NCBI GenBank assembly: GCA_016702545.1
Contig: JADJDT010000008.1
Coordinates: 192,683 to 256,682, forward strand
Source of the DNA: Pseudomonadota bacterium
Lineage (GTDB): Bacteria; Myxococcota_A; Polyangia; GCA-2747355
Reading direction: 5' to 3'
Length of the DNA stretch: 64,000 nucleotides
Position 1 is the first letter of the stretch, and each line of letters begins with the position of its first letter. The translations under genes were made by a program, and so were the position numbers. Of this stretch, positions 6,093-47,565 are shown one piece after another. The notes beneath the pieces are model-generated. The model was not told where the DNA came from, ran no database searches, and saw nothing but the letters and a program-made list of their open reading frames with translations.

Positions 6093-6117
6093 CGGCCTCG
6101 CCCCGCTCCTGGTCAAG

Positions 6118-8286: not shown

Positions 8287-9613
8287 CCTCGCCTCCCCTG
8301 GCGCGCCGCCCGCCGCTGCGAGCGCCGCTGTCCGCGGGCCAGGGCCAGCAGCAGCAGCGCGCCGCCGACCAGCAGCAGCGTGACGCCGCCGCGGGTGTGG
8401 GCCGCCGTGGCGCAGCCGTAACCGCCCCTGGCCTTGCCGCCCTGCGCGAGATAGCGCTCCCAGAGGTCCTGGGTGGCCACGGGGGTGGTCGTGCCCAGGT
8501 CGACCGGCGCGCTGGTATTGCCGGCGCGATCGACAGCCACGACGTAGAAGCGATAGGCCTGGCCGTCGGTCAGCCCCGTGATCGAGAGGGAACCCGGCGC
8601 GACGCTGTCCGAGCAGACGTAGAGCGGATTCTCGAGCAGCCCGCTCGCGCTGCCGCTGCTGCCGTCGCTCACCGTGGCGGCCACGGCCGCGTCGCTGCGC
8701 GCCTCGGCGGCTCGCGCGTCGGCGATGCCCCCGTCGAGAGCCCTCGCATCGGTCGCGCCCCCGTCGGCCGCGCCGCCATCGCCCGAGGTCAGCGCGGCGC
8801 TGCTGACGCCGGCATCGGCGCTGCTCGCGCTGGCCGTCGAGCAGGCTGTCGCGGGGCTGCTGAAGATCGGCGTCTTGCTCGCCGTGCTGCGCCAGGGCCC
8901 GGCGATCGCGCCGTCGACCAGGCGCGCGCAGAGCAGCTGGTAGCGCACGTCCTGCTCGCTGGTCGAGCCGGCCTTGAAGCTGACCGTGGCCAGGTTCTCT
9001 CCCCCGCTGGGGTCCGCGCTCTTCACGGGTGCGGTCGGCGGCTTGCCGTCGACCTCGTAGGCCAGGGCGGGTTCGAGCTTGCGCACCGCGGTCTGGTCTT
9101 GACCGACGTAGACCGTGAGGGCCAACGACTTGCGGTCGGGCGTGCAGCCGCCCGGCATCAGCTGGCGCACGGTGGCCTCGAAGACGATGTTCGTCTCCTG
9201 GTTGCCGATGCGACCCGAGCTCACCAGCACGCATTGATTCGCATCCTGGACGATGCGCTGCTCGGAATCGAGGCAGTTGGCGCCGGCGACCACGAAGTAC
9301 GATTCGGTGGTGTTGCTGCGGTCGGTCGTGATCTCGATCTCGACGCGGACGCGCCGCCGATCGGCGGTGCACTCGCAGCGCACCTGATTGAAGAGCGTCT
9401 CGGTCGTCAGCTTGGTCTTGGTCGCCAGGTCGAGGGTCGCGTCGTCGAACCTGACCTCTCTGAATTGCTTGACGGCGAAGGTCGAGCTGCTCGTCTGCGC
9501 GGCCGCGGGGCCGAGCAGACCCGCGAAGGCGGCGAGGCAGCCCAGACCGAGCGGCCACCAGCGGCCCAGCCGAGCGACAAGGGTCAGGACCCGATCGGCA
9601 ATAAACTGATCAT
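8283..9613 (-). CDS. MYXO-CTERM-anchored secreted protein (MXAN_2561-like), start unresolved
   Basis: The C-terminus GGYGCATAAHTRGGVTLLLVGGALLLLALARGQRRSQRR is a MYXO-CTERM-type tail. The signal peptide LVARLGRWWPLGLGCLAAFAGLLGPAAAQ has no in-frame ATG/GTG/TTG before it. The nearest ATG (9613) is in another frame, suggesting an indel near 9590. Confidence 0.6.
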
Positions 9614-10030
9614 CGCGGCGTCGAGGCGCCCGCCGGGCAAGGCGCAGCGACGAAAGAATACTCCTGATATTCTGAGGAGCTGCAACGCTGCCCGGCGGGA
9701 TGGATCGGCACCCCGATGGAGAGGTTATTTCCGAGCGGGTCCCAGGGCACATACGTCAATACCTCCCAATCGAGGGCCCTCGCGTCGAGGGCCCAAGCGC
9801 CCAGGGCGCGCACGGCCGACGGGCACGGAGGGAGCCAATAGCACGAACGGGGCCAGCGGGGGAGGGCCCGGCCGCCGGCGAGATGCCAGCGTTTTTTCCT
9901 CCTTTCCCCGCACCTGGGAGCCCTCGGCGCCGGGGCGGCTTGCCATTCTGGCAGGCAGCGGAGGGCTGGGCGCGCCAGACAGTCACGGGGCGCGAGCCGG
10001 ACTCGTCGAGCAGGGCGCCCGCCAGGGTGC

Positions 10031-10751: not shown

Positions 10752-11768
10752 CTACAGCTCGCCGTGCTGGGCCAGGTACTCGGCGATCTGGACGGCGTTG
10801 AGCGCCGCGCCCTTGCGCAGGTTGTCGGCCACGACCCAGAGGTTGAGCCCATGCTCGACCGAGGCGTCGAGGCGGACGCGCCCGACGTAGACCGGGTCGG
10901 TCCCCGCGGCCTGTCGCGCCAGCGGATAGCGCCGCTGGGCCGGGTCATCGACCAGCACCACGCCCGGCGCCGTGCTCAGCAGCTCGCGGGCGCGCGCCAC
11001 CGACAAGGGGCGTTCGAACTCGAGGTTGATGGCCTCGCTGTGCCCGACCATCACCGGCACGCGCACCGTCGTCGCCGAGACGCGCAGCGTCGGCTCGCCG
11101 AGGATCTTGCGCGTCTCGTCGATCATCTTGCGCTCCTCGACGGTGTCGCCGTCGGGGCGAAAGTCGCCGATCTGCGGCACGCAGTCGAAGAGAATCGGGT
11201 GCGGGAAGACCGAGGGCGCGGGATCGGGCTGCCCCGCGGCCCAGGCGCGCGCCTGCTGCGACAGCTCCTCGATCGCGCGCTGACCGGCGCCGGCCACCGC
11301 CTGATACGTCGCCACGACGATCCGCCGCAGGGTGGCCTCGCGGTGCAGCGGCGCCAGGGCCACGACCATCTGGATCGTCGAGCAGTTGGGGTTGGCGATG
11401 ATGCCCTTGGGGCGCTGGCGCGCGGCCTCGGCGTTGACCTCGGGCACCACCAAGGGCACCTGCGGGTCCAGGCGGAAGGCGCTGGTGTTGTCGATCACCA
11501 CCGCCCCGGCGCCGGCCGCGGTCGGCGCGTAGTCGCGGCTGATCGGCCCGCCCGCCGAGAAGAGCGCGACCTTCACCCCGGTGAAGCTCTGGCGATCGAG
11601 CGCGCGCACGGTCAGGCGCTCGCCGCGAAACTCGAGCGACTGCCCCGCCGAGCGCGCCGACGCCAGCGGCACCAGCTCGTCCACCGGAAAGCGGCGCTGC
11701 TCGAGCACGCGCAGCATCTCGCGACCCACGGCGCCCGTGGCACCGACGACGGCGACCTTGTAGCCCAT
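10752..11768 (-). CDS. asd: Aspartate-semialdehyde dehydrogenase
   Basis: MGYKVAVVGATGAVGREML (NAD-binding) and the active-site region IIANPNCSTIQMVVAL. Its ATG shares one base with the upstream TGA (TGATG). Confidence 0.92.
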   Translation of the reverse strand: MGYKVAVVGATGAVGREMLRVLEQRRFPVDELVPLASARSAGQSLEFRGERLTVRALDRQSFTGVKVALFSAGGPISRDYAPTAAGAGAVVIDNTSAFRLDPQVPLVVPEVNAEAARQRPKGIIANPNCSTIQMVVALAPLHREATLRRIVVATYQAVAGAGQRAIEELSQQARAWAAGQPDPAPSVFPHPILFDCVPQIGDFRPDGDTVEERKMIDETRKILGEPTLRVSATTVRVPVMVGHSEAINLEFERPLSVARARELLSTAPGVVLVDDPAQRRYPLARQAAGTDPVYVGRVRLDASVEHGLNLWVVADNLRKGAALNAVQIAEYLAQHGEL

Positions 11769-14011
11769 CAGCTCGATCCTCCCCGCGCGGCCCGCAGCGA
11801 GCGACGCAAGCGCCCCAGCAGCGTCTCGAGCTGCTGCGCCTGCGCTGCGCTCAGGCCGCTGCGGCCAAAGCGGGCGGCATAGTAGCAGCGGGTCAGCTCC
11901 TCGACCAGCGCCGCCGCGGGATGGCCCGCGCGCGCGAGCCGCGCGGCCAGCTCGACCGGCGTGGTGTCCGCGGGCCGGGGGATGCCCGCGCGCGCCAGCG
12001 CCCGCAGCGCGCGGCCGTAGACGCGCGTCGCCGGGTGCGCACGCGCCCTGCCGCGCCCTGTCGCGCGCGGCAGGGCGCGGCCGCCGCCGCCGGGGCGTCG
12101 CAGCAGCAGCCAGGCGGCCCCGGCGCCGATCGCGACCAGCAGCAGCAGCAGCAGCGGGCGGCGCCGGCCGCTCGGCAGGGCCGCGTCCGGGCCCGGCGTG
12201 GGGCTCCGGCCGCGCAGCAGGCGTCCGGCGGCGACGAAGAGCGTGCGCTGCTTGCTCAGGTCGTACTCGATGACATAGCGCAGCCAGCGCAGGCGCAGCG
12301 TATCGACGAGCTCTTGCAGCGGCAGCAGCCAGCCGCCGGCCAGGGTCGGGGGCTCGCCGCCCGCCGGTGTGGCGTCGAAGGCGACCCAGCCGAGGCCCGG
12401 CAGCAGCACCTCGGTCCAGGCGTGCGCGTCCGACTGCCGCACGGCCAGATAGCGCCCGTAGCCGTTCCACTGCCCGCCGAGCAGGCCGTTGACGTGGCGC
12501 GTGGGCACGTCGACGGCGCGCAGCAGGATCGCCAGCGCGGTGGCGAAGTACTCGCAGTGCCCGGCGCGCCGCTCGAAGAGAAAGCTATCGAGCGCGTCGG
12601 CGCCGGCCGGGGGCGCGACCAGCGCCGTGGTGTAGCGGTAGGCGCGCTGCAGGTGCCTTTGCAGCGCGAGCGCCTTGTCGTAGGCCGAGACACGCCCCGC
12701 AGTGACGCGCCGCGCCAGCGCGATCACCCGCGGCGGCAGGCTGGGTGGCAGTCGTAGGTAGCGCGCCAGCCGGCGGTCGCCGGGCGGGATCAGGGCCTGG
12801 CGCGCGAGCGCCGGGTCGGGCGTGTAGAGCTGCGAGTAGACCACGTAGCGCAGACCGGCGCTGCGCGGGCGCCCCGCGCGCAGCTCACCCAGCGGGCCGC
12901 GCTGCGGCACGAAGAGGCGCCGGCTCAGCAGCGGTGGGTCGATCAGCTCGAGCGCCACGGGCCGGTCGAGGCCGAAGAGCAGCGAGGAGCCGATTGGCTC
13001 GAGGTAGATTTCCTGGCGCAGCAGGTGCTCGCGCAGCCAACGGGTGGTCGGGCGCTGCGGCAGGCCCGGCGCGGGATTGGCCCAGTAGAGGCCGTCTACG
13101 GCCACCAGATCGTCGGTGCGACCGCTCAGCTCGGGGCTGTGGCTCCAGGCGCCGCCCTCGTAGCGGTCATAGACCGAGCCGCGCCAGCGTAGCCGGCCGG
13201 TGGCGCGCAGCGCCTCGACGCGGCGCGGATCGAGCACCACGCGCAGCACCACCTGCGGGTTGTCGCGGATCGCGCCGTGCTGGCCGAGCTGCACCTGCTC
13301 GCTGAAACCCGCCACCAGCGCCCCGCGCCGCTGCGCGCCCGAGAAGAGCCCGAAGCCGATGCGCGGGAAGCTGACGAAGACGGCCAGCGCGCCGGCCAGC
13401 ATCCCCAGCGAGAGCAGCGAGGTGCCGGCAAGGAAGCGCAGGCCGATGAGCTGCCGCGTGGCGAGCGCGGTCGGCTCGGGGGCAGCGGGGCCGGCGGGCG
13501 GCGCGGGCGCGGTGGCACCGCCGCTGCTGGTGGCGGCCTGGGCCTGCTGCTCGAGCTCGCGGCGGAGCTGCAGCAGCACCAGCGACCAGGTGGCGGCGAC
13601 GGTGAAGGCGACGAAGCAGAGCGCGTAGGACAGCTCGGTGTTGAGCGCCGTGGCGACGATCAACAGCAGGAAGGCGATGATCGTGGTCTGCTGGTAGTCG
13701 GAGCTGCTGCGGCGGTTGAAGAGCTTGTTGACCAGCAGCACCAGCAGGAAGGTCACGCCGGCGTCGACGATCGAGTCCCCTTGCAGCACGCGCACCGCGA
13801 GCACGCAGAGCACCACCAACGTGCCCAGGTTCCAGATCGCCGCCCAGCGCTCGGCCCGGTAACGCGGCGCCTCGGCCCACCAGCTCGCCACCACGCCGAG
13901 CAAGGCCAGCGCGTGCCCCGCCCGCGCCACCCCCGGCCCCAAGAGCGCGGCCGCCAACGCGGCCGCCGCCATCAGGTAGGTGCTCAGCTTGTGCAGCGTG
14001 AGGAAACGCAC
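11768..14011 (-). CDS. Transglutaminase-like protein with N-terminal multi-TM DUF3488-type region (TgpA-like)
   Basis: Cys-His-Asp core: RRAGHCEYFATALAILLRAV ... SDAHAWTEVLL ... WVAFDATP. The N-terminus has six hydrophobic helices. Start taken as GTG VRFLTLHKL (14011); the alternative is ATG at 13971. Confidence 0.8.
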   Translation of the reverse strand: MRFLTLHKLSTYLMAAAALAAALLGPGVARAGHALALLGVVASWWAEAPRYRAERWAAIWNLGTLVVLCVLAVRVLQGDSIVDAGVTFLLVLLVNKLFNRRSSSDYQQTTIIAFLLLIVATALNTELSYALCFVAFTVAATWSLVLLQLRRELEQQAQAATSSGGATAPAPPAGPAAPEPTALATRQLIGLRFLAGTSLLSLGMLAGALAVFVSFPRIGFGLFSGAQRRGALVAGFSEQVQLGQHGAIRDNPQVVLRVVLDPRRVEALRATGRLRWRGSVYDRYEGGAWSHSPELSGRTDDLVAVDGLYWANPAPGLPQRPTTRWLREHLLRQEIYLEPIGSSLLFGLDRPVALELIDPPLLSRRLFVPQRGPLGELRAGRPRSAGLRYVVYSQLYTPDPALARQALIPPGDRRLARYLRLPPSLPPRVIALARRVTAGRVSAYDKALALQRHLQRAYRYTTALVAPPAGADALDSFLFERRAGHCEYFATALAILLRAVDVPTRHVNGLLGGQWNGYGRYLAVRQSDAHAWTEVLLPGLGWVAFDATPAGGEPPTLAGGWLLPLQELVDTLRLRWLRYVIEYDLSKQRTLFVAAGRLLRGRSPTPGPDAALPSGRRRPLLLLLLVAIGAGAAWLLLRRPGGGGRALPRATGRGRARAHPATRVYGRALRALARAGIPRPADTTPVELAARLARAGHPAAALVEELTRCYYAARFGRSGLSAAQAQQLETLLGRLRRSLRAARGGSS

Positions 14012-14098
14012 GGCGGCATCGTAGCGACTACCGCGCCGATCGGCGAGCGGCGGTGCTCGCGAACGCCTAGTGAAGCAGTTCGCCGCGGGCGGCAAGAG

Positions 14099-14281
14099 CT
14101 AGACCCAAAACAAGCGCGTCCCGCGCTTGCTTTGGGTCCAGAGATGACTCAGGGGGCTTTCGCAAAGCCCCCTCGTCGCGGGGAGTGAATCCCCGCGACC
14201 TCACCCCATAACGCTCGCCTGTCGGCTCGTCTAGCCCGAAAACAAACGTCTTGCGCTCGAACGCGCTTGTTTTCGGGCTAG
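14099..14281. repeat. CTAG-hairpin MITE/REP-like element, copy 2 (inverted relative to copy 1)
   Basis: A string of four hairpins: gacccaaaacaagcgcg/cgcgcttgctttgggtc, agggggcttt/aaagccccct, tcgcgggg/ccccgcga, and ctagcccgaaaacaa/ttgttttcgggctag. It is bounded by CTAG at both ends. Confidence 0.75.
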
Positions 14282-14539
14282 AGAGGAGCGGGGGTGGCGG
14301 TCGCAGAGGAGGAGGCGGTGGGGGAGCCACCCTGCGAAGGCGGGCGGAGGCCCGCTCGGGGACCGGATGGGCATCGGTCGAGGGCGCTAGCATTGGACGG
14401 ACCGCTCCGAGAATCGGCCTTCGCTCCTCGGCTGCCGATGCCGGGCGAACCCGGTATCCCGTGCAAATGACCTACCTCCATATCTTCCACGGTACCATCG
14501 GCAACTGGCTCGAAGTCTGCATGCAAGGCGTCGCTGGGG

Positions 14540-15817
14540 GTGGGAGTGGCAACTCATCGCGCGGCCCTGGTCGTGATCCTTTTTGCTGTCGTTGCATCAG
14601 CGCGTGGTGCGGCTTCGGCCAGCCGGACCCCTCCTCCTGGGCTCGTCACCAGGAACGTCCGCCAGGTTGTGACAGCACTGGTTGACCCGAAGACCCACCT
14701 TGCACGGAGCCGGTTCACGGGGTACCCGCCAGTCTTCTCAAGGGACTACTGGCGGCTTGACGACGACGGAAGAACGCTTGCCCTGCGTTCGCAGGTCTCA
14801 CCGTCCAGGGCGCTTGCCCACCGCCTCGCGCACCCCGAAAGCTATGCGAACGAATGCGCAACTGAGGCTGCCACGGTGCTCACGCTGACCTATGCCGGCG
14901 TTCTCAAGGACCTCGGTTGGTCGTCAGGAGAGGTTGACCACCACCTTCGGAATCTGGCGCTCGGTCCGTGGCGGCTAGCGCCGAGCATTGAGCTGGCAGA
15001 GATCGTGTCCGATCGGACGGATGGTGATCTGCGACCTCTGCTGCGGCCAGGCGATGCCATTCGCCTTGTGGTTTACGACGCACGCCCCGCCGCCCAGATC
15101 CTCGGCCTCGCCTCGAACAACGTCGTCTACGTCGGCGCAGCGGAAGCGGCTGGTCCACGCTGGGATGCCGGTGAGGCTGTCTACTATGCTCAGTTCGATG
15201 GGCTCGTCGGTGAGCGCTTGGCGTTCGATTCGCTCCGGCACCACGGATATGAGGCACGCCCGCGCCACACCGAAAATGTCGTTCGATCCGTGGAGTCTCT
15301 CCGCCGGGCGCTTGCCGAGGCTGCCCGCGGGGCGGGTGCTGTGCCGGAGCCCAGTGCTTGGCACGAGATGGCGGACGAGATAACCGCCATGCTCACGCGG
15401 AGCGTTCGGCTTCGATGCGACGCGACCACTTTCGCTTCGGCCAACAAGGCGGAAATCGAGCGCGCGATGGCAGCACATTGGACCGCCCTTGCCGGGGGCC
15501 TGGAGGTCGTTGACACTGCGCCCCTCGAGGCCGCGCTCCGGGCCCTCACCGAGCCACTGCATGCAAGCGAACGCGAAATCCGCGAGCTCGAATCGAGCGC
15601 ACTGACCACTGTTCGCCGCCTCGACGAGCTTCTGGCGACGTGGTGCGAGGCTCACCGTTCGAATCGCGTGATGGAGGGCTCGATGGTAGCGGTCGCAGAA
15701 CTGCGGCGCGTCTTGGCCCGCGTCGCACCCCGCTCGCAGGTCGGAACCGATGGCCTCATTCGCCGGTTGGTCTTCCCGAACGGGCCATCTCCCCAAGAGG
15801 ACGAGCGAGCGGAATAG
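14540..15817 (+). CDS. Hypothetical secreted protein (island-borne)
   Basis: Signal peptide MGVATHRAALVVILFAVVASARGAASA. The 425-aa ORF has visibly lower GC than the flanks. I recognised no family. It is the only long plus-strand ORF here with protein-like composition. Confidence 0.6.
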   Translation: MGVATHRAALVVILFAVVASARGAASASRTPPPGLVTRNVRQVVTALVDPKTHLARSRFTGYPPVFSRDYWRLDDDGRTLALRSQVSPSRALAHRLAHPESYANECATEAATVLTLTYAGVLKDLGWSSGEVDHHLRNLALGPWRLAPSIELAEIVSDRTDGDLRPLLRPGDAIRLVVYDARPAAQILGLASNNVVYVGAAEAAGPRWDAGEAVYYAQFDGLVGERLAFDSLRHHGYEARPRHTENVVRSVESLRRALAEAARGAGAVPEPSAWHEMADEITAMLTRSVRLRCDATTFASANKAEIERAMAAHWTALAGGLEVVDTAPLEAALRALTEPLHASEREIRELESSALTTVRRLDELLATWCEAHRSNRVMEGSMVAVAELRRVLARVAPRSQVGTDGLIRRLVFPNGPSPQEDERAE

Positions 15818-15889
15818 CACTCCGGCGTCCGGTGGCCCGGCCGTGCTCTCGCCCGCGGCGGGGTGGCGGCGAACGATCTTTCGCCCACG

Positions 15890-16617
15890 GCGCGCCCGAG
15901 AAGAGCCCGAAGCCGATGCGCGGGAAGCTGACGAAGACGGCCAGCGCGCCGGCCAGCATCCCCAGCGAGAGCAGCGAGGTGCCGGCAACGAAGCGCAGGC
16001 CGATGAGCTGCCGCGTGGCGAGCGCGGTCGGCTCGGGGGCAGCGGGGCCGGCGGGCGGCGCGGGCGCGGTGGCACCGCCGCTGCTGGCGGCGGCCTGGGC
16101 CTGCTGCTCGAGCTCGCGCCGCAGCTGCAGCAGCACCAGCGACCAGGTGGCGGCGACGGTGAAGGCGACGAAGCAGAACGCGTAGGACAGCTCGGTGTTG
16201 AGCGCCGTGGCGACGATCAACAGCAGGAAGGCGATGATCGTGTCTGCTGGTAGTCGGAGCTGCTGCGGCGGTTGAAGAGCTTGTTGACCAGCAGCACCAG
16301 CAGGAAGGTCACGCCGGCGTCGACGATCGAGTCCCCTTGCAGCACGCGCACCGCGAGCACGCAGAGCACCAGCAGCGTGCCCAGGTTCCAGATCGCCGCC
16401 CAGCGCTCGGCCCGGTAACGCGGCGCCTCGGCCCACCAGCTCGCCACCACGCCGAGCCAGGCCAGCGCGTGCCCCGCCCGCGCCACCCCCGACCCCAGAG
16501 CGCGGCCGCCAACGCGGCCGCCGCCATCAGGTAGGTGCTCAGCTTGTGCAGCGTGAGGAATCGCACGGCCGCATCGTAGCGACTACCGCGCCAGTCGGCG
16601 AGCGGCGGTGCTCGCGA
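15890..16617 (-). pseudogene. Decayed duplicate of the 5' end (plus ~50 bp upstream) of the transglutaminase-like gene
   Basis: Nearly identical to 13333-14062, differing by a few substitutions and two 1-nt deletions (gatcgtg-tctgctgg; cccccgacccc-agagc) that break the frame. The track shows it split over ORFs 14975..16075, 15756..16436 and 16217..16486. Confidence 0.85.
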
Positions 16618-16632
16618 CCCCGCCCTGCTGCT

Positions 16633-17028
16633 TCACGCCGCGAGCGAGGCGACGTGAGGATAGGCCAGGATCCGCTCGTCCGCTGTCATCAGCGTCAGCC
16701 CGCGATGGCGCGTGGCAGAAACCAATATCCGATCGGCGGGGTCCTTGTGGAAGGCGCCCGGGAGTTGGTACGCGCCGAAGGCGTCCTCATGGGACAGCTC
16801 GAGGGTCTGCGCCCCGAGCGCTCCGAGCGCGGCTCGCAGCCACGCCGCGAGTTCGAGGCGAAAGGACAGTCGGCCGCTGTCGGCCAGGCGCGCGAGCTCA
16901 AGCGTGGAGATGGTATGTACGAAGCGCTCGCGCGTGGGATCGAGCAGCAGCTCGCGGCTGGCGGCGCTCAGCCGGTCGGGATCCTCCTGGGACCAAACGA
17001 GCACATGGGTGTCGAGCAAGAGCCGCAT
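16633..17028 (-). CDS. vapC: Type II toxin, PIN-domain VapC family
   Basis: MRLLLDTHVLVW... (first acidic PIN residue), ...DPADRILVATA-like segment DPADRILVSATRHRGLTLMTADERI. Its ATG overlaps the antitoxin stop (TGATG). Confidence 0.85.
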   Translation of the reverse strand: MRLLLDTHVLVWSQEDPDRLSAASRELLLDPTRERFVHTISTLELARLADSGRLSFRLELAAWLRAALGALGAQTLELSHEDAFGAYQLPGAFHKDPADRILVSATRHRGLTLMTADERILAYPHVASLAA

Positions 17029-17258
17029 CAGGGCTCCTCCCAGTCGTCGTCCCATGCGCCATGCACGATGTCGCCCCGGATCTCGACCGACCCGCGCAGC
17101 GTCCCGAGTTGTGGTCGGTGCTCGGCCTCCGCACAGGGCTGAATCGTGACCATCGGCCGGCCGCGGAGGGTTACGGTCAAGGGGGTGCGGGAGCGCTGCA
17201 CCTCCTTCAGCATCTGGATGCAGCGCGCCTTGAACTCGGAGATCAGCACGGCTCGCAT
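17028..17258 (-). CDS. Type II antitoxin, Phd/YefM-like
   Basis: MRAVLISEFKARCIQMLKEVQRSRTPLTVTLRGRPMVTIQP is a typical prevent-host-death N-terminus. It lies directly upstream of, and is coupled to, the PIN toxin. Confidence 0.75.
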   Translation of the reverse strand: MRAVLISEFKARCIQMLKEVQRSRTPLTVTLRGRPMVTIQPCAEAEHRPQLGTLRGSVEIRGDIVHGAWDDDWEEP

Positions 17259-17268
17259 CGTCGCAAGG

Positions 17269-17292
17269 TGACCTGGTCTGAGGACCAGGTCA
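17269..17292 (-). promoter_or_regulatory. Probable TA operator: perfect 10-bp inverted repeat
   Basis: tgacctggtc-tgag-gaccaggtca lies about 11 nt upstream of the antitoxin ATG. That is the usual position for autoregulatory operators of type II TA loci. Confidence 0.5.
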
Positions 17293-17403
17293 AGTCCTGC
17301 GGACTGGCCGCGCCAGGGTCGAGGGCGGCGGAGGGGAGGTCGAGGAAGGTGACGGTTGGGGGCCCGCCCCACTGGGGCCGGGGTCAAAGGGCCCGGAGAC
17401 TCA

Positions 17404-18061
17404 CTAGTGGTAGTAAATCTTGACGGCGTCTGTCGCCAGTGCTTCGGCGCGTTCCGCGATCAACTTATCAAACGAATTTGAGCCTCCAATCCCGCCGCGG
17501 ATCGGGTCGTAGTCCGTGGGGAACTCCATGGGGCCGGCCAAGGGAAGTCCTTGTGCGTCGGCGGTCTTTGGGAAAAGGGTTCTTAACGCGATCAGCACCG
17601 CCTCCTTGGTTCCTCGCTCGACCACGATTTCTTCGCTACCGCCGGCCAGCCTCGAGCCCAAGGAGCGAACCGTCACGGGTTGGGCCAGAATGCGATCGGG
17701 GTTTACTAAGGGCGGCACTTGCCCGCTCTTCGTATCGAGAAGTGAGCCCAGATGGGCTCTCAGCGAGCCGAGGACCGGCGGAACGAGGTTCAAAACCGCT
17801 GCGACGGCGGCGTCATGCTCCGCCGGGTTGAGGCGACGACCAGTTGTTGCAAAATTCTTAAGGGCGAGACCTGTGTACTGCTTGATCGCCCTGTTCGCCG
17901 CATTGTTCGCATCGGGCCTTCCTTGAGTAGCACCAGCACGAGACTTCTCAAGCTGAGGCTCACTCGCCGACGCTCCCCACGGCATTCCCACCGCGGCCAG
18001 CCCCGCCACCGCCGCGACGATCCATGACCGACGCTGGGCGGCGCTGCACCAAAGGTTCTTC
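17404..18061 (-). pseudogene. Secreted hypothetical protein, 5' end separated from its start codon by an antisense group II intron
   Basis: The reading frame runs into the intron boundary, with the signal peptide ...KNLWCSAAQRRSWIVAAVAGLAAVGMPWGASA. No ATG/GTG/TTG lies between the boundary and the signal peptide. ATG plus RBS are found at 19997 and join in frame once 18062-19986 is removed. Confidence 0.6.
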
Positions 18062-19986
18062 GTGCGCCGGTCAAACCGGCGGGTTGAAAGGAATGAGAGA
18101 GTCCAACGGCGAAGGAGTAGCGAACCACGCCGGCCCCAAGCCGTGCGTCGGCGTCCGCAAGGGCGACGGCGAAGCGTCGGTAGGGGTACATGCGGGCCGG
18201 GTATTGAGCCGCGAAATCTCTGGACCGGCACGAGAGTGCCGGACACTCCAGGGCGCCCACGCTGTGGAGAAAGCGGAAGGCAACACTGGGAGCGTCGCCA
18301 TCGCGAGACGCTCTCGGGCCCTGCGCGGTCGGAGACCCCGTGCACGCATGGAATCAACCCGCGCGGGAACCGGGAGGTCCCAGCGCCGTCTGCGGCTCGA
18401 GGGCGCCGCAGACCGCATCGTGAAGCCCCAGGGCAGACGACGATGATGAACGGCGATGGGAAGTCGGACAGCTCCGTAGTACCCGAGAAGCCGCCGAACA
18501 AAGCCGGGCAACCGGCCGCGGAGGTGGTGGAGGGAAGGGGGCTGGCCAAGGGGAATCCGCCCGAGACCACCACGCACCGGACTCAGCGCCGGATGAGCGT
18601 GCCAAGCGGCCTCGAGCGGATACGGCATGCAGCAAGGAGGAACAGGAAGCAGCAGTTCACGGCGCTCTTCCACCACGTATACGACGTCGACCGCTTGCGC
18701 GCGGCGTACCTCGCGCTCAAGCGAGACGCCGCCGCCGGCGTCGACGGCGAGACGTGGCAGCACTATGGCGAGAACCTGGAGGCCAACCTCCAGGACCTCT
18801 CGACGAGGTTGGCGCGAGGAGCGTATCGGGCGAAGCCGGTTCGCAGGGCGCACATTCCCAAGGCGGATGGGCGGCTTCGGCCGCTCGGAGTGCCGACGCT
18901 GGAGGACAAGCTCGTCCAGCGCGCGGTCGTCGAGGTGATGAACGCCATCTACGAGACCGACTTCCTCGGTTTCTCGTACGGGTTCCGGCCGCGGCGCAAC
19001 CCGCATCAGCGTTGGATGCGGTCGCGGTCGGCATCAAGTCGAGGAAGGTGAACTGGGTGCTCGATGCCGACATTCGGGACTTCTTCGGTACCCTCGTCCA
19101 CGAATGGCTGGTGAAGTTCATCGAGCACCGAGTGAAGGACAAGCGCGTCGTGCGGCTCATCCAGAAATGGCTGGCCGCCGGCGTGCTCGAGGACGGAAAG
19201 CGAGTACGAAGCGAGGTTGGGACCGTCCAGGGCGGGAGCATTTCGCCTCTCCTGGCGAACATCTACCTTCACTACGTGCTCGACCTCTGGGTCCGACGAT
19301 GGAGGCAGACGGTAGCTCGCGGTGACGTCGTCATCGTGCGCTACGCTGACGACTTCGTCCTCGGGTTCGAGCATCGGCAAGAGGCCGAGCGGTTCCTCGC
19401 GGATGTCCGCGGGCGTTTCGCGCGGTTCGGCCTTGAGCTGCACCCCGAAAAGACACGGCTCATCGAGTTCGGCCGCTTCGCGGCGACCGACCGACGAGAC
19501 CGTGGCGACGGGAAGCCGGAGAGCTTCAACTTCCTCGGTTTCACGCATAGCTGCGCGAAGGCGAGAGCGGGTTGGTTCACCGTGCTACGGCAGACGATGC
19601 GTCAGAGGTGGCAGGCAAAGCTCCAGGCGGTCCGCACCGAGCTGAAGAAACGCCTGCGACCCCGTCCCCAAGGTGGGCGCGTACCTTCGGTCGGTCATCG
19701 TCGGTCACACGCGCTACTACGGCGTGCCCGGCAACGGTCCGGCCATTAACGCGTTCCACAAGGCCATCGCCCGGCTCTGGCACTGGATTCTCGGCCGCCG
19801 GAGTCAGACGGGCAACGTGCCGTGGGACCGGATGCGAACCTACGTTCGCCGCTGGCCCCAAGTCCTCGCATCTGCCATCCGTATCCTTCGCAGCGTCTTG
19901 CCGTCATGACCCAAGGCAGGAGCCGGATGCGGTAGTGCCGCACGTCCGGATCTGTGGAGGGGGTCGCGGGTGACCGCGATCCCTAC
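18062..19986 (+). mobile_element. Group II intron (about 1.9 kb) with intron-encoded reverse transcriptase/maturase
   Basis: The 5' end is GTGCG and the 3' end is ...CCCTAC (AY). A domain V-like hairpin GAGCCGGATGCGG-TAGTG-CCGCACGTCCGGATC at ~19920-19952 is followed by a short domain VI-like stem. The RT ORF sits about 380 nt from the 5' end. Confidence 0.85.
18443..19909 (+). pseudogene. Group II intron RT/maturase (IEP), frame broken twice in this sequence
   Basis: MMNGDGKSDSSVVPEKPPNK..., RT motifs RPLGVPTLEDKLVQ, SPLLANIYLHYVLD, VRYADDFVLGF, and maturase GHTRYYGVPGN. The reading frame is spread over track ORFs 18062..19051, 18754..19749 and 19673..19909, with shifts near 19005 and 19655. 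Confidence 0.8.
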
Positions 19987-20178
19987 TCCGACCTCATGCT
20001 CCTCTTCCTCCCCACATTCCGACTTGATGGGCTCGCCGTCACCGGCGAGCCGAGGGCGCCGCACCTGAGGTTCTTTTCCATGCTCGTTCTCCTCCCCACC
20101 AGCCCACCTGAGTTGGCTCGCCTTCAGCGGCGAGCGGTTGGCCGTATGCCAGCGGCAGGCGGCCCTGTCAACTGCTTT

Positions 20179-20269
20179 TGTGACTGCTTGTGACGCCAGC
20201 GCCATGCGGGCGTCACCTTCGCGTCACGCTCACGTCACATCGCGCCTTGTGGCCCCGACGTCACGTCGG
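20179..20269. repeat. Phased hexamer array: TGTGAC x2 (10-bp spacing), CGTCAC x3 (exact 11-bp spacing) and palindrome CCGACGTCACGTCGG
   Basis: Read directly: TGTGAC at 20179 and 20189; CGTCAC at 20211, 20222, 20233 and 20259; a 15-bp palindrome at 20255-20269. A related inverted repeat ACGTGAC-N6-GTCACGT lies at 20586-20605. Confidence 0.6.
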
Positions 20270-20752
20270 CCGTGGCCGCGCTCCTGGCCGGCCCTGCTGG
20301 AGCCCCTTGGGTCGCGTAGCACTTTGCCCCGGCGGCCTCCTTGCTCAGCAAGAGCTGGGCCGCGAGACGACGGGTTGGGGACCACGGGTAGGACGGCCGC
20401 CCGCAGCCGGCGCTGGAGGCCGGTTCATGCCATAGCTACGGGTGGTTGCGACCTCGCGTCCCGCGGATTGTGGGGCGGCGACGCTCGGCGGAAGGCTGGT
20501 GTCGTCAGGTGTTTCGATCGCTCGAAACGCGCGAACGCATCCGGATCTCGGAGCCGCGGCCGGCCGCTTCAGCCGGGGCCGCTCAACGTGACTTCTGCGT
20601 CACGTGCGGTGCGCTTGGCGAGGCAGGACTTGCAGCGCGCCCGCCGGAACGCGCGTCCCGCCGGGCCTCAACGCGCAAAGGGCCGGCCGGTCGAGGATCC
20701 TGGGTGTGACTCGGTGCTGGCCGGCCAGAGCAGGAGAGGGGTAGTGCGGCGC

Positions 20753-21715
20753 CTAGTCGCGCTCTCTGAAGTGGCTTGCGTCGTCAGTCGTGTACCCGCC
20801 GGGGCCGGAGACGAAATTCCCGCCCTGGATCGCAAGACCTCCGTTGGATGTCCGGCGCGGCGCGGATGGCGCGGGCACCTCAGCGTTGTCCGGAAGGAGC
20901 AGGGTCAGGGCTGGCCGGCTCACGCCGCCACCCGCCGACGGAGTGGCCGACAAGCCGCGTAAGCCACCCAGCGGCGGGAGGCAGACCTCTTGGGCCACAC
21001 TGTCCGAAACGCGCCACGCGAGCTCGCCGTTCGGGTGCACGGCGGAGCTTGCCCAGTCGCCGGTCGCGTCCAAACCCTGACGGCGTGCCTCCTCCTGCAC
21101 CGCGCGCAGCACCCAATCCGCCAGCCGACCCTGATCCATCTGCCTCATCACGTATCCCGCGCCCGCCCAATTCGCGGCCGTCCTCGCATCGCCCGACAGC
21201 CGGTCGCCAGGCGTTCCGTCGTCATGTGGGGAAGCGCGCCACTCCACGCCCCAATCCCCAAGCAAATAGGCGAGCTGTCGCTGGGCCCGGTCGAGCACGC
21301 CCGGCGCGAGTTTGGCGAGCGCGTCTACGGCGGCTGGATGCTTTTTCGCGTCCGTCGTGGTGCGTGCCGCCGCACGGTCGCCCCCAGTGCTGTGGTTCGC
21401 GAGCACGGGGAACAACTCGTACATCGTCTCCTGGCGCAGCGTAACGCCGTGCAACCCATTGCCCCCTGAGTTCCGAGGGACGGCCCGACGGTCGCTGCCC
21501 TGCCTCCCGCTTCGTACCCATCTCGCATGCGCCTCGGCGCGGCCAACCGCGCCCGCGAGGTGCTCCCTGTCGACTCTGACCAGCTCGGCCCCCGCGTGCG
21601 CGGGAAGCGCCAGGAGCCCGAGCCCGAGCGTCGTAGCTCGGAGCAGCCCGGCGCTCCGAGCGCTACGGCGATGGGCTGCTTGATTGTTTCCGTGACTGCC
21701 TCTCATGTTGCTCAC
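20753..21715 (-). CDS. Hypothetical secreted protein, paralog of the 17404 gene product
   Basis: Signal peptide RSAGLLRATTLGLGLLALPAHAGA. The segment KKHPAAVDALAKLAPGVLDRAQRQLAYLL aligns with AEHDAAVAAVLNLVPPVLGSLRAHLGSLL of the 17404 protein. No family recognised. Confidence 0.6.
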   Translation of the reverse strand: MSNMRGSHGNNQAAHRRSARSAGLLRATTLGLGLLALPAHAGAELVRVDREHLAGAVGRAEAHARWVRSGRQGSDRRAVPRNSGGNGLHGVTLRQETMYELFPVLANHSTGGDRAAARTTTDAKKHPAAVDALAKLAPGVLDRAQRQLAYLLGDWGVEWRASPHDDGTPGDRLSGDARTAANWAGAGYVMRQMDQGRLADWVLRAVQEEARRQGLDATGDWASSAVHPNGELAWRVSDSVAQEVCLPPLGGLRGLSATPSAGGGVSRPALTLLLPDNAEVPAPSAPRRTSNGGLAIQGGNFVSGPGGYTTDDASHFRERD

Positions 21716-21953
21716 GCCTCACCTCCCCTTTTCCCACCCCGCCCCTAGTGGCGAGCGCCTCGCTCATGCCATCGCTGTAGCGGGAATGCAAGTCCGTGGG
21801 TTGCAGCGGCGCAGCGCGGCTGTGGTCTCGATCGAGGCGTGGGGCTCGGAGTCCTTGCCGCGCAGAGGCGAATGATAGTACGTACGACGAATTACCCCTG
21901 CGGACGCGTGCGGCGGGACCGGGAGCTCGGCGGCGCGGAGAGGAGAGCTGGCG

Positions 21954-23630
21954 ATGATCGAATGGGCGAAGAGCAACGACGCGATCGGGACGGCCAACCG
22001 CGGCAATGCCTGCGAGTCGGGCCTGTGCACGCTGTGCCGCGCCGACTGCAAGGGCAAGTGCGAGACCTGGGTGGGCAGCATGATGGGGCGCAAGCTGCTC
22101 TACCCGCGCGACTTCGGCGTGGTGACGGCTGGCAGCGGCAACACGACGCACGTCGGCGTCAACTACAACGCGCTGCGCGTGCAGGGCTACCTCTATGGCG
22201 CTCACGGCCTGCCGGGTGAGCTGAGCAGCAGCGCCGACGACTGCATCTTCCCCAACGTCACGCTCGAGACCTCCTTCGGCGCCAAGGTGAAGACCCGCTC
22301 GCGCCTGCCGATCATGACCGGCGCGCTCGGGTCGACCTTCATCGCCGCCAAGTACTGGACCTCGTTCTCCACCGGCGCGGCGCTCTGCGGCTTCCCGATC
22401 GTGATCGGAGAGAACGTCGTCGGCGTCGACCGCCAGGCGGTGATCGAGGAGGGCCGCATCAAGAGCGCACCCGAGCTCGATCGGCGCATCGACACCTTCC
22501 TGCGCTACCACGACGGCTATGGCGCGGTGATCGTGCAGATGAACGTCGAGGACACGCGCAACGGCGTCGCCGAATACCTGATCGGCAAGTACGGCGACAA
22601 GGTGATCATCGAGCTGAAGTGGGGTCAGGGCGCCAAGAACATCGGCGGCGAGATCCAGGTCACCAGCTACGAGTACGCGCTCTTCCTCAGGCAGCGCGGC
22701 TACATCGTCGACCCCGACCCGCTGTTGCCCGAGGTCAAGGACGCCTACGAGCGTCACGCGATCCGCGCCTTCGCCCGGCACAGCCGCCTCGGCTACACGG
22801 ATCTCCCCTCGGCGGGCGCCGTGCGCGAGAACTTCATGACGCAGGTCGCCTACCTGCGGCAGCTCGGCTTCAAGCGCATCACGCTCAAGACCGGCTCCTA
22901 CGGCATGCAGCCGCTGGCGATGGCGATCAAGTTCGCCTCCGAGGCCAACCTCGACCTGTTGACGATCGACGGCTCGGGTGGCGGCACGGGCATGAGTCCG
23001 TGGAACATGATGGAGAGCTGGGGGGTGCCCTCGCTGCTGCTGCACGCCAAGGCCTACGAATACGCCAAGCTGATGGCCGACAAGGGCCTGCGCGTGGTCG
23101 ACCTGGCCTTCGGCGGCGGGCTGGCGCGCGAGGACCACATCTTCAAGGCGCTGGCCCTGGGGGCGCCCTTCACCAAGCTGGTCTGCATGGGGCGCGCGCT
23201 GATGATCCCCGGCTTCGTCGGCTCGAACGTCGAGGGCGTGCTGCGCGGCGAGGAGCGCGATCTGGTCGTCGATGGCGTGCTGGTGAGCAAGGACACGGTG
23301 CACGGCAACTGGGACAAGCTGCCCGGCTCGGTGCGTGAGCTCGGCAACTCGGCCGAGGAGATCTTCGCCGGCTACTACGAGGTGCAGAAGAAGGTCGGCA
23401 AGGACGAGATGAAGAACGTGCCCTACGGCGCGGTGGCGATCTGGACGCTCTGCGACAAGCTCGGCGCCGGGCTGCAGCAGTTGTTGGCGGGCGCGCGCAA
23501 GTTCTCGGTCACCGATCTCAGCCGCAACGAGATCGTCGCGGCCAACCGCGAGACGGCGCTCGAGACCAAGCTGCCCTTCATCACCGAGGTCGACGACGGC
23601 AACGCGCGGGAAATCCTGCTCGCGCGGTAG
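21954..23630 (+). CDS. Glutamate synthase-related FMN-binding protein (GltB domain-2 family) with N-terminal Cys cluster
   Basis: IELKWGQGAKNIGGEIQV, LTIDGSGGGTGMSPW, and GGLAREDHIFKALALGA are hallmarks of the Glu_synthase FMN domain. The N-terminus carries CESGLCTLCRADCKGKCE. Confidence 0.8.
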   Translation: MIEWAKSNDAIGTANRGNACESGLCTLCRADCKGKCETWVGSMMGRKLLYPRDFGVVTAGSGNTTHVGVNYNALRVQGYLYGAHGLPGELSSSADDCIFPNVTLETSFGAKVKTRSRLPIMTGALGSTFIAAKYWTSFSTGAALCGFPIVIGENVVGVDRQAVIEEGRIKSAPELDRRIDTFLRYHDGYGAVIVQMNVEDTRNGVAEYLIGKYGDKVIIELKWGQGAKNIGGEIQVTSYEYALFLRQRGYIVDPDPLLPEVKDAYERHAIRAFARHSRLGYTDLPSAGAVRENFMTQVAYLRQLGFKRITLKTGSYGMQPLAMAIKFASEANLDLLTIDGSGGGTGMSPWNMMESWGVPSLLLHAKAYEYAKLMADKGLRVVDLAFGGGLAREDHIFKALALGAPFTKLVCMGRALMIPGFVGSNVEGVLRGEERDLVVDGVLVSKDTVHGNWDKLPGSVRELGNSAEEIFAGYYEVQKKVGKDEMKNVPYGAVAIWTLCDKLGAGLQQLLAGARKFSVTDLSRNEIVAANRETALETKLPFITEVDDGNAREILLAR

Positions 23631-23637
23631 CCGTCGT

Positions 23638-24729
23638 TCAGTAGCCGGAGGCTCCCGCCCCTGGCGCCGCTGCGGGCGCGCCCACCACGATGCAGTCGCG
23701 TGGCAGCGCCGCGTCCCGCCCCGAGCCACCATCGCCCGCGGGCTCGTCTACCGTCACGAAGGCGATCAGCGCCAGCTCGCGCAGGATGCGCTCGAGCTGC
23801 GCCGGGCCGCTGGCGGCGGGCACCTGCGCGCTGTGGCTGAGCAGGGCGACGGGATGGCCGCGTGAGCCGTAGTGCAGGGCGAGCGAGGCGGCGCGGCTGA
23901 CGGCTTGTTCTTGCAGAGCCTCGTGGGCCGGGCTGGGCGGCAGCAGGGCGCGGTTGTCGAGGAAGAGCGTGATGCGCTGCGCGCGCGGGCTCTCGTGCTC
24001 GCGCACGACGGGGCGGCCGAGGCGCGCGCTCTTGCGCCAGGCGATGTCGCGCGGGTCGTCGCCGGCGCGATAGTCGCGCAGCGCGTGGAACTCGCCAGCG
24101 CGGTCGCGCTGCGCCCCGGCGCCCTCGCCGCGCTCGCGGGTCGGGTGGGCGCCGGCGCTGAGCGGCATCACGGCGGGGTAGACGATCAGCTCCTCCGCGG
24201 CGCCGAGCGGTCGCGCCTTCTCGAACAGGCCGAAGGGAAAGGGCGTCTGCGCCACCAGGCCGGGCAGCGCGTAGCGCCCGCGCCGCGCGAAGCTGCGGCG
24301 GTAGACCGCCTGGCGGGTCTCGCCGGGCAGCACCTTCAGCAAGTAACAGCGCTCGCTGGCCGCGAAACCGCGCGGGCTGCGCTCGCCGACGCTCAGCGCG
24401 TAGGAGGCGAAGCCGCGCTTGTCGTTGTGGACGACCAGCGCGATCAGCGCCGGCTGGTCGACGTGCACGCGGCGCGGCAGGCGGCGCTCGACGCGCACGC
24501 GTCGCAGGGTCAGCTCCGAGAGCACGCCGCTGGCGACGATCAGCGCCAGCAGCAGCCCGAGCACCAGGAAGAGCAGGTTGTTGGCGGTGTTGATCGCGGC
24601 GAAACCGACGCCGAGCGTGATCGTGACGAAGTACTTGCCGTCGCGGGTGAAGCGCAGCCGGCGCCGATAGGCAGGCTCGGCGCTGCCGATCGCGCTGGCC
24701 TCGGTCGGGGCGCTGAGGGGTCGTCGCAT
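23638..24729 (-). CDS. DUF58 domain protein (MoxR-associated)
   Basis: Two N-terminal TM helices and the motif GEFHALRDYRAGDDPRDIAWRKSARLGRPVVRE. It lies immediately downstream of a MoxR ATPase. Confidence 0.85.
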   Translation of the reverse strand: MRRPLSAPTEASAIGSAEPAYRRRLRFTRDGKYFVTITLGVGFAAINTANNLLFLVLGLLLALIVASGVLSELTLRRVRVERRLPRRVHVDQPALIALVVHNDKRGFASYALSVGERSPRGFAASERCYLLKVLPGETRQAVYRRSFARRGRYALPGLVAQTPFPFGLFEKARPLGAAEELIVYPAVMPLSAGAHPTRERGEGAGAQRDRAGEFHALRDYRAGDDPRDIAWRKSARLGRPVVREHESPRAQRITLFLDNRALLPPSPAHEALQEQAVSRAASLALHYGSRGHPVALLSHSAQVPAASGPAQLERILRELALIAFVTVDEPAGDGGSGRDAALPRDCIVVGAPAAAPGAGASGY

Positions 24730-24739
24730 CGACGCGTGC

Positions 24740-25798
<1,059 letters not shown>

Positions 25799-47500: not shown

Positions 47501-47565
47501 GCCCCTCGCGCCGCTGGGACCCCGTCGTGTAGCACCCGCTTCCCCGTCGGTGCGCTCAGCGTTTG

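Follow-up and report, generated by a model that had tools for sequence, protein, structure and literature searches.

How can a stretch of bacterial DNA come to differ strongly in base composition from its surroundings when no integrase, transposase or tRNA gene is found with it? This question is raised by the interval 14063-21953 of a 64,000-nt stretch of contig JADJDT010000008.1 (positions 192,683 to 256,682 of the forward strand; hereafter the window, in which all positions are counted unless another contig is named). The contig belongs to the metagenome-assembled genome (MAG) GCA_016702545.1, placed by GTDB in Myxococcota_A (Polyangia; GCA-2747355), and an earlier note, made from the letters of the window alone, had read the interval as one accessory, acquired region. 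Comparison with related contigs leads us to another answer: with a probability of roughly 0.7, the interval is not a single acquired island but a recombination hot-spot of composite make-up, situated within a MoxR-DUF58-TgpA gene cluster. A gene for an exported protein (P320), a non-coding spacer and a small downstream gene (here called the slot gene) are long-term residents between DUF58 and TgpA, and strain-specific DNA would have been added to them.

Gene order of the locus in related strains

The resident part of the locus and its anchors are arranged as follows (the slot gene, which is interrupted in the window, is given further below).

11768-14011, minus strand: intact TgpA-like transglutaminase gene (Pfam TgpA_N, Transglut_core and DUF4129), the left conserved anchor
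20082-20752, minus strand: conserved non-coding spacer of 670 nt
20753-21715, minus strand: P320, an exported protein of 320 amino acids (aa) whose signal peptide is constant and whose mature region diverges strongly
21954-23630, plus strand: GltS-like flavin mononucleotide (FMN)-enzyme gene (Pfam Glu_synthase), the right conserved anchor, outside the interval
23638-24729, minus strand: DUF58 gene (Pfam)
24740-25798, minus strand: gene for a MoxR AAA+ ATPase (Pfam)

Contigs of relatives (L001 and following) were obtained through P320 matches, with two JGI contigs added through a pattern of TgpA 5' DNA. All related contigs extending over this part have P320, the spacer and a slot gene in the interval from DUF58 to TgpA, and the order GltS / P320 - spacer - slot is common to L001, L002/L003, L005 and L089. 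Nucleotide identity to related strains is 95-99.5% up to approximately 21850 on the GltS side (95-99.5% for the GltS-like gene itself) and again from approximately 14053-14062 on the TgpA side. The window and L001 agree at 99.5% of positions from 25222 to 20052, where identity stops; beyond this point L001 is unrelated save for the stretch coding for the signal peptide, and it lacks the intron described below. In L002/L003, an identity of 95-99% across GltS collapses at approximately 21850, and P320, the spacer and a 212-aa gene are followed by a truncated 5' fragment of TgpA (TgpA'), which in L002 begins 75 nt after the slot gene, and then by DNA differing from that of the window. An intact TgpA beside the slot gene had been considered for these two contigs and was rejected when alignment revealed the truncated fragment.

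L086/L087 are 97-99% identical to the window from 14053 leftwards, and in them the 3' end of the slot gene adjoins an intact TgpA across a gap of approximately 90 nt (the L086 ortholog has 745 aa and 96.9% nucleotide identity). The order in L089 is DUF58 - GltS / P320 - spacer - slot - 130-nt TgpA' remnant - phd-like remnant - GNAT - AAA_14/DUF4143 - GT87. Homology to TgpA starts within approximately 10 nt of 14060 in all strains, i.e. at the start of a conserved leader that precedes the likely GTG start codon at 14011 and is kept even in L094. The latter contig, from the distant genome GCA_016711215.1 (aa identity 91% for MoxR, 74% for DUF58, 77% for TgpA, 75% for FG-GAP and 39% for P320), has the order FG-GAP / MoxR - DUF58 - (Phenol_MetA_deg, opposite strand) - P320-like gene - 380-nt spacer - 200-aa gene - TgpA - DUF4129. 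Further close relatives were found neither in GTDB representative genomes nor in JGI metagenomes; a contig scan with a single TgpA protein, a scan of JGI metagenomes with the P320 alignment, and exact look-ups of the GltS, P425, P0001, P0002 and vapC sequences of the window likewise gave nothing.

The earlier note had named two observations that would speak against an acquired region, namely a composition indistinguishable from that of the flanks and a gene order conserved in distant relatives. The first was not made, while the second was, for P320, the spacer and the slot gene, in a relative with the TgpA and MoxR identities given above. As to the question, raised there, of whether the interval is absent or variable in relatives, only the left part (a Tgl-like gene, TgpA' and a phd-vapC pair) and the intron are strain-specific additions; the right third (P320, spacer and slot gene) is positionally conserved.

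Constant and variable blocks

One sign of exchange is the mosaic formed by L002 and L005. These are 100% identical through the P320 signal peptide, fall to an identity of approximately 0.35-0.8 over the P320 mature region and the distal spacer, return to 95-100% over the proximal spacer and the slot signal peptide, and fall again to approximately 0.2-0.5 over the slot mature region. Such alternating blocks argue that each variable block has been exchanged independently, via recombination in the constant blocks. We propose that an old layer of the locus would consist of the co-directional P320 and slot genes, with a promoter-bearing spacer between them and TgpA following. The constant blocks would be the GltS side with the P320 signal peptide, the proximal spacer with the 5' untranslated region (5'UTR) and the slot signal peptide, and the TgpA leader, while the mature regions of P320 and of the slot protein would form the variable ones. 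RecA-type homologous recombination in the constant blocks would swap the variable blocks between strains, and exchange of this kind needs no integrase; there are precedents for such integrase-free exchange (PMC4033161, PMC3240628, PMC5361080).

The divergence of P320 is in keeping with its place among the variable blocks. Its alleles differ by a synonymous divergence (dS) of 0.54-0.94, compared with 0.025-0.09 for GltS and 0.06 for TgpA, and the ratio of non-synonymous to synonymous divergence (dN/dS) is 0.53-0.62, against 0.10-0.17 in the GltS and TgpA flanks. The alleles are open reading frames (ORFs) of 288-385 codons that share 87 invariant columns and conserved signal peptides. P320 has no match in Pfam, NCBIfam, PADLOC or PHROGs, and a PDB profile search returned 0 hits. 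Four relatives are present in Logan assemblies (identity 99, 60, 58 and 42%), to which a hidden Markov model (HMM) scan covering 1.84 billion representatives contributed a single further one, P0007. Judged by these searches, P320 represents an apparently undescribed and very rare family.

The spacer, which belongs to a non-coding stretch of 755 nt at 19998-20752, contains the following elements.

20082-20097: Shine-Dalgarno (SD) sequence
20116-20135: 5'UTR hairpin
20143-20148: CATACG
20166-20171: TTGACA
20190-20217: palindrome
20212, 20223 and 20234: three GTGAC boxes at 11-bp spacing
20512-20554: conserved block (GCTCCGAGATCCGGA...TTCGAGCGATCGAA)

In the alignment the promoter-proximal 150 nt are the best-conserved part, and TTGACA, 17 nt from CATACG, is invariant. 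The block at 20512-20554 is kept even in L094 (approximately 11215-11260). We observed that this block of approximately 40 nt (GCTCCGAGATyCGGA...TTCGA...ATCG, with two small hairpins) has been retained where the TgpA proteins are only 77% identical, and that the protein genes beside it are far more diverged than the block itself; it may serve as an operator, a small RNA or a terminator. Two other readings of the spacer were rejected: as protein-coding DNA, because variable columns are spread 57/53/53 over the three phases without 3-nt periodicity, and as a structured RNA, there being no Rfam hit at E <= 1 and a covariation term of +0.56 (from only 3 independent lineages). The arrangement suggests that the spacer is a regulated promoter region for the slot gene, which perhaps serves TgpA as well in strains of the L086/L087 type.

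The slot gene and its probable replacement in the window

In the window, the slot gene has the following parts.

20052-20081, minus strand: a stub of 10 codons (MEKNLRCGAL) that belongs to the resident slot gene and precedes the incoming cassette
19987-20051, minus strand: first part of the incoming class III slot cassette, comprising a hairpin (20030-20051), an SD sequence (19998-20013) and the ATG with the first 11 nt of the ORF (19997-19987)
18062-19986, plus strand: group II intron of 1,925 nt, antisense to the slot gene
17404-18061, minus strand: second part of the slot gene (P222), i.e. the remainder of the signal peptide and the class III mature domain

Slot proteins share approximately 30 N-terminal residues (MEKNLRCGALRRRSWIVAAVAGLA...) and then continue into one of four classes of mature domain: class I in L001, L087 and L089, class II in L002/L003, class III in the window and class IV in L094. 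No significant similarity connects the classes (best E value 0.03 over 35 residues, all others at least 0.35), none of them has a match in Pfam, NCBIfam, PADLOC or PHROGs, and P222 is an orphan for which no homologs were found. The P222 ORF is recovered when ATGAGGTCGGA at 19997-19987, with GGGGAGGAAGAGGAGC just before it, is rejoined to 18061-17404, which gives 222 codons including the signal peptide. In the mechanism that we propose, the class III allele would have arrived with its own hairpin, SD sequence and start codon, leaving the 10-codon stub of the former occupant, and the intron would then have entered this allele.

The intron is recognised by Rfam RF02005 (165 bits) and RF00029 (42.7 bits), has the ends GTGCG...CTAC expected of its class (GUGYG...AY), and can be aligned end to end, at 68-70%, with intact introns of Variovorax, Ralstonia and Burkholderia. 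Ribozyme domains and boundaries are therefore those of a group II intron, but its reverse transcriptase (RT)/maturase is not intact: relative to a 456-aa ltrA, tblastn revealed 3 frameshifts (at approximately 19006, 19650 and 19855), for which assembly error is possible, and the match to TIGR04416 reaches 187.8 bits against a cut-off of 300. No exact pairing of exon- and intron-binding sites (EBS1/IBS1) was found for the intron target. It interrupts P222 in the fourth codon and, being antisense, cannot be spliced out of the P222 transcript, so that this slot allele is probably inactive.

Three ORFs of the interval have signal-peptide-like N-termini, assigned by eye: 14540-15817 (plus strand; P425), 19997-19987 joined to 18061-17404 (minus strand; P222) and 20753-21715 (minus strand; P320). 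The earlier note had described all three as secreted proteins of no recognisable family and had singled them out as the likeliest undescribed content of the window. This holds for P320 and for the slot proteins, with the qualification that P222 is interrupted by an intron in unspliceable orientation, and fails for the 425-aa protein, which is Tgl-like (see below). The public annotation of the MAG shortens all three genes, from 425 to 313 aa (P425), from 320 to 223 aa (P320) and from 222 to 201 aa (P222); the short calls (MBK6847302.1, MBK6847308.1 and IPG96_07095) lack the signal peptides, and that of the 425-aa gene also loses part of the Tgl-homologous segment.

A constant 5' part followed by unrelated 3' parts, together with the stub of a displaced resident upstream of an incoming cassette, could also mean that the slot gene encodes a secreted toxin of the polymorphic toxin or bacteriocin type, whose delivery part is constant, whose toxic part varies, and in which incoming modules displace older ones. 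This would fit the displacement model of PMC5361080, and near-identical strains do hold different alleles. However, the constant part is only a signal peptide of approximately 30 residues, no toxin or immunity domain was detected with Pfam, NCBIfam or PADLOC, and there are no orphan 3' arrays. Nor is there a candidate immunity gene adjoining the slot gene downstream, either in L086/L087, where TgpA follows within approximately 90 nt, or in L002. We consider an antagonistic role of this kind improbable.

Strain-specific DNA next to TgpA

The following elements lie between the slot gene and TgpA, with copy A of a direct repeat reaching into TgpA itself.

13328-14062, minus strand: copy A of a direct repeat, comprising the TgpA leader and the first approximately 228 codons, duplicated at 15885-16617
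14099-14141 and 14232-14281, no strand assigned: two palindromic hairpins resembling repetitive extragenic palindromes (REP), with a further copy at 53021-53041
14540-15817, plus strand: Tgl-like protein (P425) of 425 aa with a signal-like N-terminus (Pfam TGL)
15885-16617, minus strand: TgpA' pseudo-fragment, copy B of the repeat, ending at the position equivalent to 13328 and carrying two 1-nt deletions
16633-17028, minus strand: vapC-type PIN toxin of 131 aa with its ATG at 17028 (Pfam PIN, E = 5.8e-12)
17028-17258, minus strand: Phd/YefM-type antitoxin of 76 aa (TIGR01552, 24.6 bits, cut-off 20.8)

Copies A and B of the 735-bp repeat differ at 17 positions (97.7% identity), with sharp ends on both sides and frameshifts in copy B. 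An apparent gradient of identity along the repeat (98% to 88%) had been considered as a recombination step and was rejected, as it merely reflected non-homologous bases beyond 14062. Comparable truncated TgpA' fragments are present in L002/L003 and in L089. Those of L002 (4556-4755) and L003 (2946-3145), compared with window 14050-13329, have an internal deletion of 513 nt between two GCGCTGGCC 9-mers, while L089 carries, at 5999-6278, its 130-nt TgpA 5' remnant and, directly after it, a phd-like remnant of approximately 160 nt with 74% identity to window 17156-17315. Relics of TgpA' and phd thus recur at the locus in L089, in another order.

As a second, strain-specific layer, phd-vapC, the 735-bp pseudo-copy of the TgpA 5' end and the Tgl-like gene would have been gained between the slot gene and TgpA. 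An intact TgpA, an insert and a truncated TgpA', as well as the stub at 20052-20081, are the expected residue of a single crossover with DNA that brings along a 5' fragment of TgpA; homology-facilitated illegitimate recombination would have the same outcome. Recombination between copies A and B would delete the insert and restore the arrangement of L086/L087.

The Tgl-like gene is strain-variable, and an independent copy, encoding a protein of 423 aa (P0008) with the same Pfam result, lies on L093. P425 matches Pfam TGL (PF20085) with 30.2 bits (gathering score 23.7, E = 3.5e-7) over residues 67-156, covering profile positions 78-161 of 245, and reaches 31.1 bits with the NCBIfam Tgl model PRK03187, far from the equivalog cut-off of 307. 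Its only sequence matches in the PDB are the Tgl entries 4P8I/4PA5 and 7C9J. The motif YANECAT of P425 is aligned with YAFECAT of Tgl, so that E105-C106 corresponds to Glu115-Cys116 of the Bacillus enzyme (4P8I), residues known to be catalytic (PMC6490927); equivalents of Tgl Glu187 and His200 were not found in an alignment that reaches only profile positions 78-161. Among 5.8 billion clusters, no homologs of P425 were detected besides its own MAG entry MBK6847302.1 and the 423-aa Logan copy. With about one third of the Tgl core detectable, P425 is plausibly an exported cysteine transglutaminase or a related enzyme. Searches of plasmids, phages and viral contigs with P425 and P320 yielded no relatives of either protein. 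The structure prediction that the earlier note had proposed for these proteins was of no help, as the AlphaFold models, built for P320 from a 5-sequence alignment and for P425 from its sequence alone, had predicted local distance difference test (pLDDT) values of 48.5 and 37.6, respectively, too poor for use, and Foldseek comparison of the P320 model with the PDB gave only noise (best E 0.86, TM-score approximately 0.1).

The toxin and antitoxin genes overlap in a stop-start TGATG, with a candidate palindromic operator upstream at 17270-17291, and the pair has the organization of a type II toxin-antitoxin (TA) module, i.e. a PIN toxin gene following a small overlapping antitoxin gene with an operator. 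The earlier note had called it a vapBC-type pair, which is correct for the PIN/VapC toxin, whereas the antitoxin is of the Phd/YefM type and not VapB (26.7 bits with Pfam PhdYeFM, under the gathering threshold of 29.8). The REP-like hairpins share the core CTAGCCCGAAAACAAGCGCG, with 4 matches against 0 expected by chance, and the copy at 53 kb is located at the 3' end of the gene 53038-55167; they probably represent a genome-wide family of extragenic palindromes or terminators. The inverted repeat 14099/14281 had been considered as the termini of a miniature inverted-repeat transposable element (MITE), which was rejected given the two separate hairpins and the copy at 53 kb.

Since the source is a MAG, part of this organization might be an artefact of metagenome assembly, in which co-occurring strains were collapsed into one contig and long reads introduced indel errors. 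Sample ERR8482649 holds both L001, with another slot allele, and L093, with the Tgl-like gene; the class III allele, the TA pair and the intron are found nowhere else, and the RT has three frameshifts. On the other hand, L093, which shares its sample with L001, matches window 14410-15919 with 99.8% identity, so that the junction of the Tgl-like gene and TgpA' at 15884/15885 was assembled independently, and TgpA' fragments occur in other samples. Neither the duplication of the hairpin-SD-ATG module nor the direct repeat of 735 bp can arise from a haplotype switch at homologous positions, and the intron flanks rejoin to a clean ORF homologous to the other alleles. An artefact is excluded for the junction 15884/15885 and for 20052-25222 and is possible for 16618-20051, present in this MAG only; for the locus as a whole we give it slightly less credence than a toxin function.

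Base composition of the interval

The drop in composition reported in the earlier note is real and far beyond chance. GC content is 0.6765 within 14063-21953 and 0.7295 over the rest of the 64-kb window; the lowest-GC stretch of 7.9 kb in the entire window begins at 14001, and the interval lies approximately 7 standard deviations below 82 windows of the same size not overlapping it (mean 0.7285, standard deviation 0.0073). The GC content at third codon positions (GC3) is 0.905 +/- 0.028 across 26 flanking genes, compared with 0.70 in the 425-aa gene, 0.80 in vapC, 0.69-0.70 in P222, 0.79 in P320 and 0.81-0.85 in the intron RT. Tetranucleotide distance to the rest of the window has its maxima at 14001 (0.12) and 17001-19001 (0.13-0.16) and is approximately 0.02-0.04 elsewhere. 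The remaining content that had been listed for the interval (signal-peptide ORFs, TA pair, group II intron, decayed fragment, hairpins and non-coding DNA with phased repeats) is likewise all present.

Confinement of so strong a deviation to the interval, the presence in it of genes of the mobile-element type (TA pair and group II intron) and the orphan status of P425 and P222 are what could be expected if the whole interval were one island acquired horizontally, by an unknown route, from a donor of lower GC content. As had been noted, there is neither an integrase nor a transposase at the interval, in which all ORFs are accounted for and no unassigned space is left for an integrase, and tRNA genes are absent from the 64-kb window. 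The intron RT is the sole mobile-element enzyme, and flanking repeats are limited to the 735-bp TgpA copy, in place of the short att repeats of an insertion beside a tRNA or tmRNA gene. Of the features of a classical integrase-mediated island, atypical composition is therefore the only one found. An integron does not fit either: there is no integrase, and the cassette borders differ in place by strain, some falling within the signal peptide, some behind it and some at the 5'UTR hairpin.

The reading as one acquired region does not hold when relatives are considered. The interval sits exactly between two conserved anchors and its content varies by strain, with internal breakpoints at different places (20052, approximately 21850 and approximately 14060). 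P320, the spacer and the slot gene hold their position in all covering contigs and in L094, and the composition deviation is seen at the orthologous genes of all relatives: GC3 is 0.74-0.80 across P320 alleles and 0.70-0.79 in slot genes, against 0.86-0.96 in the flanks, and is low in both genes of L094 too. This argues that low GC3 is a standing property of these genes and not the mark of recent import. A REP-like hairpin of the host itself lies inside the interval, and the TgpA' fragment is common to other strains. The single-island view is contradicted for 19998-21953, and for the interval as a whole we regard it as very unlikely. On the hot-spot reading, the dip would exist because the variable blocks are much older than their flanks and under weak constraint, with lower GC3.

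The least credible explanation regards P320 and the slot ORFs as sequences in decay or without function, whose low GC3 and divergence reflect lost selection, as dN/dS of 0.5-0.6, reduced GC3, the lack of family matches and low AlphaFold confidence might suggest, but the ORFs persist over dS of 0.5-0.9 and into a distant genus-level relative, with their invariant columns and signal peptides, dN/dS clearly below 1, GC2 lower than GC1 and GC3 in frame, and conserved upstream regulatory elements.

Several further observations concern the flanks. The proteins closest to the GltS-like protein are 70-74% identical and come from Clostridia, Syntrophorhabdia, Omnitrophota and other, mostly anaerobic phyla, and in L094 an opposite-strand gene for an outer-membrane protein (Phenol_MetA_deg, 9060-9866) stands in its place. 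Judged by synteny, the GltS-like gene may itself have been inserted long ago between DUF58 and P320, although its GC3 of 0.96 looks native. Substitution clusters at window 22222-22522 and 21772 relative to L001 (0.96-0.97 in 150-nt windows, inside a GltS region that is otherwise 99-100% identical) could be short recombination patches. Elsewhere in the window, a second, milder GC dip at 47001-49000 (GC 0.66-0.70; tetranucleotide distance 0.054-0.055) surrounds the gene 47715-48878 (GC3 0.87), and the last kilobase (63001-64000) has an unusually high GC content of 0.827.

Points against a recombination hot-spot

A number of observations weigh against the hot-spot reading. The comparison set comprises approximately six independent strains, mostly represented by short Logan contigs, and one distant genome. 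This MAG is the only source of the TA pair, the intron and the class III slot allele, and the junctions at 20051/20052 and 16617 lack an independent assembly. The TgpA' fragments of L002/L003 and of the window end within 4 nt of each other and are then followed by unrelated DNA, which simple homologous exchange fails to explain, and L089 has no intact TgpA in the 4 kb after its slot gene. A generic sigma-70 consensus scan did not call the promoter-like site TTGACA/CATACG. The dN/dS of 0.5-0.6 is compatible with relaxed constraint and with diversifying selection alike. Gene order is the sole link of P320 and the slot gene to TgpA, and searches by family, structure model and fold assigned no function to either protein.

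Comparison with known systems

MoxR-DUF58-TgpA gene clusters are widespread, and the flanking genes of the present locus carry these domains in the usual order and orientation. In this clade, an opposite-strand gene and the P320-slot pair lie between DUF58 and TgpA; we know of no description of such an interruption.

The locus resembles the replacement flexible genomic islands of Lopez-Perez, Martin-Cuadrado and Rodriguez-Valera (2014, PMC4033161), which occupy the same position in all strains, carry deeply divergent content with exposed or exported products between near-identical flanks, have no mobility genes, and whose exchange is ascribed to homologous recombination in the flanks. Position, interior divergence and signs of recombination at the boundaries were all found here. 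In contrast to the multi-gene glycosylation and envelope clusters, this locus is far smaller (two genes), its anchors include signal-peptide coding regions inside genes, and the peak of synonymous changes or single-nucleotide polymorphisms described in PMC4033161 is not seen at the L001 boundary. With the C-terminal displacement of Rhs, contact-dependent inhibition (CDI) and type VI secretion system (T6SS) effectors (PMC5361080, PMC3240628), it shares a constant 5' part with unrelated 3' parts, remnants of a former occupant, and the combination of one homologous anchor with one illegitimate join (the stub 20052-20081; TgpA/TgpA'). It differs in that the constant part is only a signal peptide and in the absence of a toxin domain, an immunity gene, secretion-machine genes and an orphan array. 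The locus combines replacement-type hypervariability with displacement of the constant-5'/variable-3' kind, here reduced to the scale of a signal peptide and placed within a MoxR-DUF58-TgpA cluster.

P425 resembles the spore-coat Tgl of Bacillus subtilis (PF20085; 4P8I; PMC6490927) in scoring above the Pfam threshold and in the Glu-Cys pair at the catalytic position. It differs in aligning over only about one third of the core, in its N-terminal signal-like sequence and a helical tail of approximately 270 residues, both absent from Tgl, and in its host, an organism of approximately 73% GC. The added elements, i.e. the TA pair, the group II intron and the REP hairpins, are ordinary. The first two follow textbook type II TA modules and bacterial group II introns in their domains, in the overlap of the genes, in the palindromic operator and in the ribozyme domains with their boundaries, with the differences that this intron is antisense to the interrupted gene and has a frameshifted RT; at this locus, remnants of a similar phd occur in L089.

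Significance of the locus

The cellular role of the MoxR-DUF58-TgpA cluster is, as far as we know, still unclear. The two exported proteins may conceivably function in the cell envelope together with the TgpA system, and selection on exposed proteins by phages, predators or kin discrimination might maintain their diversity; our confidence in both proposals is low. A more far-reaching version, possible but in our judgement unlikely, is that in this uncultured, high-GC clade the system acquired two dedicated exported partners forming a strain-specific, recombination-shuffled envelope determinant. In it, the slot gene would act as an 'expression-and-export socket', where a constant promoter, 5'UTR and signal peptide receive unrelated mature cassettes, exchanged among strains that are nearly identical elsewhere, and the products may be cross-linked or processed by the neighbouring transglutaminase-like enzymes and diversified by phage pressure or kin discrimination.

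The case illustrates that a strong anomaly of composition without integration machinery need not indicate recent horizontal import. Here it would mark a locus of long standing, in which alleles pass between strains by homologous recombination while retaining their own base composition. Moreover, it brings to light two apparently undescribed families of exported proteins tied to MoxR-DUF58-TgpA, one of which has interchangeable mature domains after a fixed signal peptide. If this association is functional, these proteins would be candidate substrates or partners for enzymes of the TgpA type, and the locus would offer a compact natural case of cassette exchange at the level of the signal peptide.

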